From sequence record PQ900156.1: a stretch of DNA of 64,000 nt. One strand, 5' to 3'. The notes beneath the pieces are model-generated. The model had not been told where the DNA came from, ran no database searches, and saw only the letters and a list, made by a program, of their open reading frames with translations. Origin of the DNA: Escherichia phage vB_EcoP_ShWW44. Made by a program: the position numbers and the translations under genes. Positions 3,870 to 15,099 of this stretch are shown here, in pieces (position 1 is the stretch's first letter; the number at the start of each line of letters is the position of its first letter).

Positions 3870-4222
3870 AACTAATCATAGCCGGTGGAAGAGACTTCGT
3901 AGATACCAATCGTATGATTGAGGAACTACAGAAGTTAGTAAATTCAGGGAATATACCTGAATGCCCAGAATTAGTATGTGGTATGGCTCGCGGAGCAGAT
4001 ATATTAGCATTCCGTCTATGGAAATCTGCAAATATGCAGATACATGTATTCCCTGCTGAATGGGATACCTATGGCAAGTCTGCTGGATTCCGTAGGAATA
4101 AAGAAATGGGTGAATTTGCAGATGCTGCTGTATGTTTCTGGGATGGTAATTCCAAAGGAACCAAGCACATGATTGATATCATGAATAAGCTAAATAAACC
4201 TGTATACGTCGTGAGGTATTAG
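3866..4222 (+). CDS. SLOG/DUF2493-like Rossmann-fold nucleotide-binding protein (118 aa)
   Basis: Motifs IIAGGRDF, GMARGADILA, EWDTYGKSAGFRRN, WDGNSKGT resemble the SLOG (YspA/DprA/LOG-like) family as recalled; ATGA overlap with upstream ORF. Confidence 0.55.
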   Translation: MKLIIAGGRDFVDTNRMIEELQKLVNSGNIPECPELVCGMARGADILAFRLWKSANMQIHVFPAEWDTYGKSAGFRRNKEMGEFADAAVCFWDGNSKGTKHMIDIMNKLNKPVYVVRY

Positions 4223-5978: not shown

Positions 5979-6004
5979 TGGTTATTAATCACATTTAGGA
6001 GAAT
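5979..6004 (+). promoter_or_regulatory. conserved leader motif TGGTTATTAATCAC..TTAGGAGAAT (copy 1, upstream of RNAP1)
   Basis: Near-identical to 31718-31744 upstream of the SSB-like gene. Confidence 0.4.
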
Positions 6005-6009
6005 ATGCG

Positions 6010-6828
6010 ATGTACTCATCTATTGAACATCAGAAGCGACTTGAAATCCTTTTCAACAAAAATCAATTACTACCTCGCATGAGGAAGGAATTCGAGGACT
6101 CCGAAGAAATTGACTTTAAGGCATTCGCTGCCTATTCGGAAATTGATTATAAGCTGCTCATTGATGCAATGGTGCAGATTGCCCTACATAAACGTGCTGA
6201 CATTCAGACTATGATTGGCTCTCTCATGAGTCACTCAGATGATGCTCAGTACATCGCTGACTGTCTGTATAAGATGGCAGAGAATGACTGCTTCAACTAT
6301 GACCCTACCATCGACAAGTTCGGTGTTATTTATGAGATTAGTGAAGATGTACAGATGGAACTGGAAGCATTCCAGTATCCATTGCCTATCGTAAGTGCTC
6401 CTAAGCCTGTTCTGTGTAACCGTGATACTGGTTACTACGAAAGCAGAGGTAGCATCATCCTCAAGAAGAACCATCATGAGATGGATGTCTGTCTTGATCA
6501 CATCAACCGTATGAACAATCAACGTCTCTGTATTAACTGGGACGTTGCTAACTATGTAAAAGACTCTCGTCCTAACATGGATAAACCCAAAGAAGGTGAA
6601 ACCCGTCAGGACTATGAGAAACGTGTTAAAGCCTTTGAGAAGTACAGTCGTACAGCTAAGGAAGTAATGGAGCTAGTGACCAAAGAAGGTAATAACTTCT
6701 CACTGGCTCACAAGTATGACAAACGTGGGCGTACCTATGCCTGTGGCTACCACATCAACTATCAGGGAACCAGTTACAACAAAGCTGTGCTGGAGTTCGC
6801 TGATAAGGAGCTAGTAAATGAAGACTAA
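6010..6828 (+). CDS. RNA polymerase II small subunit-like (N4 RNAP1-like), 272 aa
   Basis: Position directly upstream of the T7-like RNAP catalytic subunit, as in N4; no independent motif confirmed. Confidence 0.55.
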   Translation: MYSSIEHQKRLEILFNKNQLLPRMRKEFEDSEEIDFKAFAAYSEIDYKLLIDAMVQIALHKRADIQTMIGSLMSHSDDAQYIADCLYKMAENDCFNYDPTIDKFGVIYEISEDVQMELEAFQYPLPIVSAPKPVLCNRDTGYYESRGSIILKKNHHEMDVCLDHINRMNNQRLCINWDVANYVKDSRPNMDKPKEGETRQDYEKRVKAFEKYSRTAKEVMELVTKEGNNFSLAHKYDKRGRTYACGYHINYQGTSYNKAVLEFADKELVNED

Positions 6829-7036: not shown

Positions 7037-8254
7037 ATGCAACTGTTAACCGCTCGTGAATACCTGAAAGTAGATATCGCTAATAACTATGGCTTAGATA
7101 AGAAGACATGGGATGAACGTATTGCCTGGTTCGATGAGAACGAAGCTAACCTGCTTAATCTGGTAGATGAAGCAGAGGATTCTGCTCTATTCTTTGCAGG
7201 CATAAATGCATGGAAAGATATGAAAGCTGGTAAGCCTATTGGTTATGCCGTAGCTCTGGATGCTACATCGTCAGGCTTGCAATTGCTGGCTTGTCTGACT
7301 GGTGACCGTTCTGCTGCTGAACTGTGTAACGTAGTTAACTACATGGGCGAGAATGGTAAGCCATTACGTCGTGATGCTTATACAGTCATCTACCATAAGA
7401 TGCTGGATATCCTTGGTGAAGCATCACGTATTAAACGTAGTGACACTAAGCAGGCAGTTATGACTGCATTCTACGGCTCAGAAGCCAAGCCTAAAGAAGT
7501 ATTCGGTGAAGGTATTCGTCTCAAGACTTTTGAGAATGTAATGGAAACTGTTGCTAGTGGTCCTTGGGCACTTAACAAGTTCTTACTGCAATGTGGTAAC
7601 CCGGACGCCAACCGTTACATATGGATACTGCCTGACAACTTCCACGCTGTCATTAAGGTCATGGTTCCAGAGGTACAGACTGTTAACTTCTTAGGTAAAC
7701 CGTTCGACATCACTCGTATGGTTCAGGGTACTGAAGAGAAGACTCGTATGCTCTCTGCTAATATCACTCACTCTATTGATGGGATGGTGGTACGTGAGAT
7801 GCTACGTCGTTGTAACTTCGACCGTGACTTAGTAGAAGCTGTGCGAGAACTCTGTGATGAAGGTCCATCAGAATATGGGGAGATTGCAGGTAATCTGGAG
7901 AAGGTACAAGAGCTATGGAGCCATTATGAGAAATCTGGCTTCTTATCCGTATCAATCCTGGATTATCTTGACCCATGCACTATTGCTTATGTAGACCGTC
8001 AGGTAGTAGCAGATATGATTGACACTATGCCTAAGAAGCCATTCCCTGTAATGACTGTACATGACTGCTTCCGTTGCCATCCTAACTACGGTAATGACTT
8101 GCGTCGTCAGTATAATCAGATTCTGTCTGATATTGCTAAGAGTGACTTGCTTGGATTCATTCTGTCTCAGGTACTGGGACAAGAGTTCTCTGCTGGTAAG
8201 CTGGATGACAGCCTCTGGCAGGACATTCTGGAGACTGATTATGCATTAAGTTAG
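7037..8254 (+). CDS. T7-like single-subunit RNA polymerase catalytic subunit (N4 RNAP2-like), 405 aa
   Basis: Motif A-like LDATSSGLQ, motif B-like RSDTKQAVMTAFYGS, motif C-like VHDCF. Confidence 0.85.
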   Translation: MQLLTAREYLKVDIANNYGLDKKTWDERIAWFDENEANLLNLVDEAEDSALFFAGINAWKDMKAGKPIGYAVALDATSSGLQLLACLTGDRSAAELCNVVNYMGENGKPLRRDAYTVIYHKMLDILGEASRIKRSDTKQAVMTAFYGSEAKPKEVFGEGIRLKTFENVMETVASGPWALNKFLLQCGNPDANRYIWILPDNFHAVIKVMVPEVQTVNFLGKPFDITRMVQGTEEKTRMLSANITHSIDGMVVREMLRRCNFDRDLVEAVRELCDEGPSEYGEIAGNLEKVQELWSHYEKSGFLSVSILDYLDPCTIAYVDRQVVADMIDTMPKKPFPVMTVHDCFRCHPNYGNDLRRQYNQILSDIAKSDLLGFILSQVLGQEFSAGKLDDSLWQDILETDYALS

Positions 8255-13836: not shown

Positions 13837-13849
13837 GTAGCTGCCTAGA

Positions 13850-13876
13850 TAGCCCAACTATGTTGGGCTATTTGCG
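13850..13876 (+). terminator. rho-independent terminator (TAGCCCAAC-TATG-TTGGGCTA + TTTGCG)
   Basis: Read directly. Confidence 0.55.
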
Positions 13877-13909
13877 AAGAAACTAACTCAACCCCACATA
13901 GGAACCATC

Positions 13910-14161
13910 ATGGAATCTTTAGCAGCAATCCTTGTACTGTTGTTTGTATTAGCCGTATACCTTATCCCTACTATCATTGCTTTTGCACGAGGTCATGCCT
14001 CTAAGTGGGGTATTGGTGTGCTTAATATCGTATTAGGCTGGTCACTGGTATTTTGGGTAGTAGCACTTATTTGGGCACTGTCTAATAAAGGAACTACAAT
14101 CGTTAACGTTGGCAGTGGTAACCAGTACAACGTGTCTCAAACGAGCAGCAAAGCAGAGTAA
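13910..14161 (+). CDS. superinfection-immunity-like (Imm family) inner-membrane protein, 83 aa
   Basis: Two TM helices and motif IIAFARGH ... LNIVLGWSLVFWVVALIWA resembling the T4 Imm family pattern as recalled. Confidence 0.55.
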   Translation: MESLAAILVLLFVLAVYLIPTIIAFARGHASKWGIGVLNIVLGWSLVFWVVALIWALSNKGTTIVNVGSGNQYNVSQTSSKAE

Positions 14162-14233
14162 CTAATCTAAGCATCATTAATAGGGTGCTTGTGGAAGTTA
14201 CTTCCAGCTCATTGCTTATCCATCTCCTAACCC

Positions 14234-14260
14234 AAGCCCACCTAACCCGTGGGCTTTTTT
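14234..14260 (+). terminator. rho-independent terminator (AAGCCCAC-loop-GTGGGCTT + T6)
   Basis: Read directly. Confidence 0.65.
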
Positions 14261-14655
14261 AATTACAGGTACTTCTTATGACAAACAGACGAATGGTAAG
14301 TCTATCTTGTATGGGCTGGACTTAAGTAAGCTAGAACAAACAGCAATGCTTACTTTAGGTAAAACTATCCATGACCAAGTGGAGAATGAAAATGTATTAG
14401 ATCTTTACACAACAATGCAGGTTCTTGTTCAAAAAGATGGACTACTAGCAGACCTTTTCCTTCATACATTCCCCCAGAACCGCATCTGAAATCTAAGGTA
14501 GACCGTATCATAGATAAGTTCTGGCTTAGCCCGTGTTATGACGAAATGCATCTTTACTTGGCTCAAATACAAAAGAATCCTTATACCAAAGATGTATTTA
14601 AGGGTAAGAGTACTACTCACCACTACCCCTGGTATAGAAGAGGTAGCAAATACTA

Positions 14656-15099
14656 ATGCGTATCCCATTCCTGAGAAAAAGGGAACGAAATCCTGTTCTT
14701 TACAATAAAGGCATAGAGGATGAGTATGAACTCAATCGTAAAGCTCGTTCCTACACAACAGAATTATTCATAGGGACTAGAAATCCTGATAGATTATTGG
14801 ACTTTGTTTTTGAACAAGTCTTTATCATATACAGATTAGCTATGACTGCTGGTTCACAAGAAGTGGGTGATAAGGCAAGACATGCTCTCTGTATGCTCCG
14901 TAAAGAGTATGAAGCCCTCATGTATGAAGACTTGTACTCCTTTAAAGAAGAAACCGCTGTAGCGTGTTCTGTGGCTCTTACTGAAGGTGTAGCAGTATTA
15001 CAAGAACTACCTCGTAGTGAGTTTAAGCTGGTATACGCTCAGGTTAAGAGAATCACAGAGACGAGAAGTGGTATCACTAACTATCTAAGGTCATTCTAA
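14656..15099 (+). CDS. hypothetical protein (147 aa)
   Basis: ORF. Confidence 0.5.
   Translation: MRIPFLRKRERNPVLYNKGIEDEYELNRKARSYTTELFIGTRNPDRLLDFVFEQVFIIYRLAMTAGSQEVGDKARHALCMLRKEYEALMYEDLYSFKEETAVACSVALTEGVAVLQELPRSEFKLVYAQVKRITETRSGITNYLRSF

Follow-up and report, generated by a model that had tools for sequence, protein, structure and literature searches.

The question raised by this locus is whether a very small membrane protein of a virulent phage, which in outline resembles the superinfection immunity protein Imm of T4, also does what T4 Imm does, namely keep the genome of a second phage out of the infected cell. The gene lies in Escherichia phage vB_EcoP_ShWW44 (record PQ900156.1), of which a stretch of 64,000 nucleotides, referred to below as the window, was analysed; an earlier, sequence-only reading had described its product as a two-transmembrane, Imm-like protein encoded by a stand-alone unit flanked by terminators. 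Our preferred answer, to which we assign a probability of about 0.55, is that this small inner-membrane protein of the Imm_superinfect family (PF14373) serves a virulent G7C-like coliphage to block the entry of a second phage's genome. The features of the locus, in window coordinates, are as follows:

13847–13873, + strand: hairpin 1, AGATAGCCCAAC-TAT-GTTGGGCTATTT, with a stem of 12 bp, located 3' of the stop codon of the gp27 homologue
13871–13889, + strand: upstream copy of a junction repeat, degenerate, TTTGCGAAGAAACTAACTC, recognised by comparison with the repeat of phage Moo19
13900–13903, + strand: Shine-Dalgarno-like AGGA, 6 nt 5' of the ATG, read directly from the sequence
13910–14161, + strand: imm-like coding sequence, ATG start, 83 codons plus stop, from the open reading frame list and translation
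14169–14190, + strand: small hairpin AAGCATC...GGTGCTT just 3' of the stop codon, from the alignment
14188–14205, + strand: downstream copy of the junction repeat, CTTGTGGAAGTTACTTCC, which contains the mini-palindrome GGAAG-TTA-CTTCC
14234–14262, + strand: intrinsic terminator, AAGCCCAC-CTAACCC-GTGGGCTT followed by TTTTTT (scan call at 14234–14256 plus the T6)

The window belongs to a Gamaleyavirus, that is, a G7C-like, N4-related podovirus (Schitoviridae), and its bases 1–24998 align in one piece with bases 1–24998 of phage St11Ph5 (MG208881) at 94.1% identity; start and end coordinates are identical over these 25 kb, with no net indel. The imm-like frame (hereafter imm) is a real gene under strong purifying selection and not a chance ORF, since its ω value against St11Ph5 is 0.02 (dN 0.005, dS 0.251) and since 79 homologues with 61–99% identity were retrieved from 5.8 billion proteins, many of these homologues being encoded on contigs of phage size (~72 kb). 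The differences of imm from its St11Ph5 counterpart are almost all synonymous, so that the divergence between the two phages looks natural. Against more distant relatives, the ω of imm ranges from 0.07 to 0.4, with similar values for the flanking genes, and the region of the AGGA is conserved among the relatives in the alignment. The complete translation is MESLAAILVLLFVLAVYLIPTIIAFARGHASKWGIGVLNIVLGWSLVFWVVALIWALSNKGTTIVNVGSGNQYNVSQTSSKAE; the 83-aa frame that the sequence-only reading had placed at 13910–14161 matches it exactly, and the motifs quoted there are both present (PTIIAFARGHASKWGIGVLNIVLGWSLVFWVVALIWALSNKG). The ShWW44 protein is 98.8% identical to gp27.1 of St11Ph5 (ATS92498.1), which has the same coordinates and already bears the annotation "putative membrane immunity protein". 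A compositional test gave no sign of a recent foreign origin of imm: its GC content (~0.42) equals that of its surroundings, with no anomaly.

To which family does the protein belong? A Pfam search for the Imm_superinfect profile, which the sequence-only reading had proposed as a check, was positive: PF14373 is matched with 61.5 bits (gathering score 27.9; E 6.9e-17), the domain spanning residues 16–57 and covering profile positions 1–42 of 42. PHROG 1039, "immunity to superinfection", is matched over residues 1–80 (101.6 bits, E 9.5e-29). T4 Imm itself (83 aa, from NC_000866) matches PF14373 at 58.2 bits, and BLASTP aligns it with the ShWW44 protein at 31% identity over 45 residues (E 4e-9, composition-corrected); the resemblance to the T4 Imm family, which the sequence-only reading had noted, is thus borne out by two profile matches and a direct alignment. 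When the ShWW44 protein and 24 homologues (25 G7C-like sequences) are aligned with the Imm proteins of T4 and Bp7, residues P20, A24, R27, G28, S31, G34, I35, W44, W49 and I54 are invariant, and an N-terminus of the form ME(S/T/A)L is common to the T-even and G7C-like proteins. On these sequence matches, the membership of the 83-aa protein in PF14373 is firm. Orthology with T4 Imm, as judged from sequence scores, is not firm, and a test for a close relationship to T-even Imm was negative: when the best 150 representatives and the T-even proteins, 155 in all, are ordered by BLASTP score to the ShWW44 protein, T4 Imm comes 153rd and Bp7 Imm 140th, so that ~150 representative clusters stand closer to the ShWW44 protein than T4 Imm does.

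The family as a whole is very broad. A profile of the G7C-like proteins retrieves 12,681 clusters (at 50% identity) at E ≤1e-3 and 920 at E ≤1e-10; lengths among the best 150 matches listed range from 57 to 348 aa, and many members of the PF14373 family are longer, multi-domain proteins with a TPM domain or zinc-ribbon-like C-termini. The same annotation is given to proteins of several phage groups that are unrelated to one another and have genomes of ~42–180 kb, among them T4-like phages (Bp7, and Klebsiella and Cronobacter phages of ~165–180 kb), ~43-kb Salmonella phages and ~45-kb Acinetobacter phages. NCBIfam gave no match for either the ShWW44 protein or T4 Imm; PADLOC gave none for the ShWW44 protein and, for T4 Imm, a meaningless 12-bit hit to "2TM-TIR" only. 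A profile search of PDB sequences returned chance hits to PsaM alone (E ~0.3), so the family has no solved structure. Weak, sub-threshold Pfam hits to other transmembrane families (DUF3302, DUF3810) were also seen.

The proposed two-transmembrane character of the protein agrees with both analyses of its layout. In a Kyte-Doolittle plot (19-residue windows, threshold 1.6), two hydrophobic spans, residues ~1–25 and ~34–59, exceed the threshold and are separated by a polar, positively charged loop containing R27, H29 and K32. An AlphaFold2 model built on 15 homologues has helices at residues 2–27 and 32–60 and a disordered tail at 61–83, with a moderate mean pLDDT of 66.7. The predicted layout is the following:

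residues ~2–27: transmembrane helix 1
between the helices: loop A-R-G-H-A-S-K-W-G
residues ~32–60: transmembrane helix 2
residues 61–83: polar tail

Sequence variation follows this layout. Across 80 sequences, the core (residues 17–61) is nearly invariant, with a mean column entropy of 0.32; residues 1–16, which form the N-terminal half of helix 1, and the tail are more variable (0.84 and 0.73, respectively). The tail exists in a few discrete forms: an 86-aa form (SNKGQSQTTIVNVGSGNQYNVSQTS), the 83-aa form and an 80-aa form ending in QNQVTNVTVVQTNGGSKAE. The copies of ShWW44 and St11Ph5, with 83 residues, lack the QSQ that follows SNKG in most relatives, whose proteins have 86 residues; other relatives carry the 80-aa allele. 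In the record of phage Bp4 (NC_024142; 3383–3640 of the segment compared), imm is annotated at 67 aa only, and the usual C-terminal tail, QNQVTNVTVVQTNGGSKAE, is encoded in another frame, so that one nucleotide must have been gained or lost near codon 61 of the record, whether by a true truncation of the gene or by an error in sequencing.

The position of the gene is as constant as the core of its product. The imm gene is encoded on the rightward strand, ~19% of the way into the genome; around it are homologues of N4 genes 24–32, in a neighbourhood of nucleotide-metabolism genes (dCTP deaminase, ThyX). It is found, under the same annotation, between the gp27 and gp28 homologues of 24-32N, Moo19, Bp4, IME11, PhAPEC5 and RudolfBernhard Bas96, and at the corresponding position of the unannotated record of AN24P2, by sequence match; altogether, all G7C-like and Moo19-like relatives examined have it at the same site. 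In gene, locus, flanking hairpins and terminator, ShWW44 imm is the same as gp27.1 of Gamaleyavirus and Moovirus phages, which is annotated either as "putative membrane immunity protein" or as "immunity to superinfection". The identification made from the sequence is correct, and its novelty is low, the gene being already annotated in near-identical published genomes.

Comparison with N4 delimits the unit that carries the gene. In N4, both flanking hairpins are present, but only ~52 nt separate them and this spacer contains no ORF; imm is therefore a discrete cassette of ~0.32 kb lying between two conserved hairpins that are neighbours in N4. When N4 bases 1–68999 were searched with the profile in six frames, no Imm/PF14373 homologue was found (best E 0.13), and the same search of the ShWW44 window returned exactly one match (E 1.9e-40). 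N4 gp28 was considered as a counterpart of Imm and rejected, being hydrophilic and unrelated in sequence. The borders of the cassette are marked by a short repeat, which is best seen in Shigella virus Moo19, where a perfect 16-nt direct repeat, TTGTGGAAGTTCCTTC, brackets imm, the copies being 324 nt apart (1113–1128 and 1437–1452 of the Moo19 segment compared). The empty site of N4 has a single similar sequence, the spacer sequence GGAAATTCCTTTC, which is homologous to the downstream copy. This arrangement suggests that the cassette either entered the G7C/Moo lineage or disappeared from N4 through short-repeat recombination; the GC content being the same as that of the neighbouring genes, the event was probably not recent. 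As a separate observation on N4, its record annotates gp18 (7668–7982 of the N4 segment compared) as "superinfection exclusion, similar to P22 gp17".

The two ends of the cassette differ in how well they fit the earlier description of a unit flanked by terminators. On the downstream side that description holds: the terminator is called by the scan, folds at -12.5 kcal/mol, runs into the AT-rich TTTTTTAATTA 5' of the gp28 homologue, is conserved in all relatives and in N4 according to the alignments and has at the homologous place of the PhAPEC5 record an ARNold-predicted terminator. On the upstream side it does not: hairpin 1 is followed by UAUUUGCG, with GCG directly after the stem and no clean U-run, and was not called by the terminator scan, so that any termination there would be weak or leaky at best. 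As a structure, hairpin 1 is nonetheless well supported. Its fold energy is -18.2 kcal/mol (z = -4.2), and it is conserved with covariation, 97.6% of the cells being paired and four pairs changed on both sides, a result that none of 500 shuffles equalled. It is kept in the G7C-like phages, in Moo19 and in N4 (~4050–4080 of the N4 segment compared), and its stem is fully replaced with compensation, reading GCCC/GGGC in G7C-like phages and GGGG/CCCC in N4. Possibly it acts as a weak terminator, an RNA 3'-end, a processing site or a stability element. The small hairpin at 14169–14190, which belongs to a folded 3' UTR, also has a compensatory change, from C-G to T-A, between ShWW44 and St11Ph5. 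Early promoters of the N4 vRNAP type have a stem of 5–7 bp and a 3-nt loop; hairpin 1 and the palindrome GGAAG-TTA-CTTCC were considered as such promoters and rejected, as the loops (TAT, ATT, ACA, TTA) vary between relatives.

The label "stand-alone unit" likewise stands in part. A good terminator follows the gene and a conserved hairpin precedes it; no promoter of its own was identified, a promoter scan of 13837–13909 finding no sigma-70-like site. For this reason, imm is probably expressed by read-through of hairpin 1 within rightward middle-gene transcription. The middle transcripts of N4 run rightward, overlap and come only from the left half of the genome, and the promoters of RNAPII are short and AT-rich (PMC4496689). 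By analogy with N4, the phage RNAPII would probably transcribe imm together with the middle genes, a few minutes into the infection.

How would such a protein exclude a second phage? The two predicted helices would form a helical hairpin in the cytoplasmic membrane; by the positive-inside rule, its loop A-R-G-H-A-S-K-W-G would then probably lie on the cytoplasmic face, with the N-terminus and the polar tail on the periplasmic side. If the homology to T4 Imm extends to function, the second phage would be kept from opening or using the path by which its genome is translocated across the inner membrane, and the superinfecting DNA would stay outside the cytoplasm and be degraded, leaving the cell to the first phage. 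T4 Imm is one of two exclusion proteins of T4, together with Sp (PMC7677548), and blocks DNA injection by altering the injection site (PMC4737114, PMC11436027); according to the note in the T4 RefSeq record, it leaves superinfecting DNA in the periplasm for degradation. Its topology was reported to be "unusual" (Lu, Stierhof & Henning 1993), and an exclusion phenotype of the T4 Imm type includes protection against ghosts. A search of the literature on Imm in N4-like or G7C-like phages, on PF14373 and on Imm_superinfect found no experimental report. A block of genome entry by the ShWW44 protein may reasonably be inferred from remote homology, with the proviso that both the exclusion function and the "immunity" label rest on one distant characterised member, T4 Imm.

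The likeness to T4 Imm (gene imm, NP_049660) goes beyond the PF14373 domain and the length of 83 aa. Both proteins have (i) two long predicted hydrophobic helices with a short basic loop between them; (ii) the N-terminus ME(S/T)L; (iii) the motif P-x3-A-x2-R-G-x2-S-x2-G-I ... W-x4-W-x4-I-W; (iv) a short beta-prone hydrophobic run in the tail, TIVNV in ShWW44 and VIII in T4. Both come from virulent phages and have pre-late neighbours in nucleotide or DNA metabolism, T4 imm lying between genes 43 and 42 and ShWW44 imm between the genes for dCTP deaminase and ThyX. The differences concern the shortness of the region of 31% identity, with T4 Imm among the most distant members; the loop, which reads RGHASKWG in ShWW44 but RGSKSTVG in T4; the tail, which is polar and rich in N, S, T and Q in ShWW44 but charged in T4; and the carrier, an N4-like podovirus, whose apparatus for ejection is of another kind. 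The proposed step is also the one ascribed to SieA of P22, gp15 of HK97 and Sim, phage-encoded inner-membrane proteins that are said to block the passage of DNA into the cytoplasm (PMC11436027, PMC13434031). Unlike the ShWW44 protein, which is made by a virulent phage, these three are expressed from prophages, and there is no sequence relationship, none of them figuring in the Pfam or PHROG results.

Members much closer than T4 Imm are found in bacteria. The PF14373 proteins P0240/P0083 (84 aa) are 48–49% identical to the ShWW44 protein over 71 aa and have in common with it the signature PTIIA-x2-RGH-x-SK-x-GI ... LGW ... ALIWS and the tail motif V-x-I-I-N-V. Unlike ShWW44 imm, the bacterial gene lies in a housekeeping setting (dnaE, groES/groEL, nadC, tilS), and no phage genes were found within 6 kb on either side of it on its 2.07-Mb contig. 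It is a stand-alone 84-aa gene at 6001–6255 of the segment examined (ENA contig, 2.07 Mb). The "superinfection immunity" family clearly has cellular members, and since such a chromosomal member lies without phage genes nearby, the presence of a PF14373 module need not mean exclusion.

Several other readings have to be weighed against genome exclusion. One of them, a spurious hydrophobic ORF whose composition alone would make it match a low-complexity transmembrane profile, draws on the fact that short hydrophobic proteins can match falsely, as the weak hits to DUF3302 and DUF3810 illustrate; it is effectively refuted by the coverage of the full PF14373 profile at 61.5 bits against 27.9, the composition-corrected BLASTP alignment with T4 Imm (E 4e-9), the invariance of polar and aromatic residues (R27, G28, S31, W44, W49), the ω of 0.02 at a dS of 0.25, a proper Shine-Dalgarno sequence and conservation in 79 homologues. 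A more serious competitor, which we consider unlikely but far from negligible, is that the protein is a PF14373 membrane module of a generic kind whose role is not exclusion (it might, for example, modulate a process at the host inner membrane, stabilise the infected cell's membrane or adjust the timing of lysis), and that "immunity" is merely a label inherited from T4. The very large size of the family, which is mostly uncharacterised and has many members fused to other domains, speaks for it, as does the homologue with 48% identity over 71 aa whose gene lies between dnaE and groES/groEL on a 2.07-Mb bacterial contig; moreover, the signature "RGH...SNKG...V-I-V-N" is common to the ShWW44 protein and non-phage proteins and absent from T4 Imm. 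What counts against a generic module is that the phage members are consistently short and stand-alone, that the one tested member is an exclusion protein and that imm lies outside the lysis cassette; we know of no alternative activity for any PF14373 member. A holin or lysis role in particular was considered and rejected: the Pfam and PHROG hits include no holin family, and the N4 lysis genes gp60–63 are far off, in the late leftward region, which makes a role of imm in lysis unlikely.

Exclusion could also be directed at phages of other types. That imm blocks the genome entry of other coliphage types, e.g. T-even-like myoviruses, and not that of G7C-like phages is a distinctly unlikely alternative in our estimation, although it has several points in its favour. 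T4 Imm, the sole characterised member, reportedly acts on T-even-type phages (work attributed to Lu & Henning, 1989 and 1994); the family is present in unrelated phage groups; the cassette, which may have been gained at a repeat-bounded site and is absent from N4, looks as expected of an accessory competition gene; and the annotators of the Bp4 record noted a similarity to Imm of the T-even-like phage JS98. On the other side, the ShWW44 protein is much closer to uncharacterised members of the family than to T-even Imm, so that an interface specific for T-even phages need not be conserved, and the variable tail alleles in Gamaleyavirus fit self and non-self targeting alike. Against the preferred reading, a block of genome entry by an inner-membrane Imm protein, stand the remoteness of T4 Imm, the breadth of the family with its chromosomal member, the searches of PADLOC, NCBIfam and PDB that gave it no support and the moderate confidence of the structure model, and two further points: T4 Imm is not known to exclude any but T-even-type phages, and these inject their DNA with an apparatus unlike that of an N4-like podovirus, from which a virion RNA polymerase of ~3,500 aa is ejected; and N4, which is closely related and whose lysis inhibition depends on superinfection, has no imm.

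Two wider ideas may be added, which we regard as a long shot. The Imm module might act on a host inner-membrane step of entry that is common to myo-, sipho- and podoviruses, which would make it a portable exclusion gene against unrelated competitors, with the tail alleles setting specificity; or else superinfecting DNA diverted to the periplasm might be the signal for the rII-linked lysis inhibition of N4-type phages. If imm does bring about exclusion, it would affect G7C-like phages in mixed infections and in therapeutic cocktails, because a second phage would get no further in a cell that is already infected. The protein would, in addition, be a very small and tractable system in which to study a mechanism that is unsolved even in T4, namely how a membrane hairpin of 83 residues stops genome translocation across the inner membrane, and the contrast of presence and absence with N4, together with the natural tail alleles, provides ready-made comparisons. 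What the present analysis adds is modest: the anatomy of the cassette, the alleles of the tail and a warning that the name "immunity" has been transferred by remote homology, a useful correction in that the family label depends on a single distant characterised member.

A further observation concerns the gene immediately downstream of the cassette. The gp28 homologue (14279–14656, + strand), which is intact in Bp4, IME11, 24-32N and PhAPEC5 (127–130 aa), is split into three reading frames in ShWW44 by two 1-nt deletions, GACG-AATGG near 14292 and CAAAAA-GATGG near 14433. Both deletions are also present in St11Ph5, although the two genomes differ at ~6% of bases; the split gene looks like a lineage-specific pseudogene or a gene that needs frameshifting, rather than a sequencing error. 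Its final 36 codons (14546–14656) are still open and end in a TAATG overlap with gp29.
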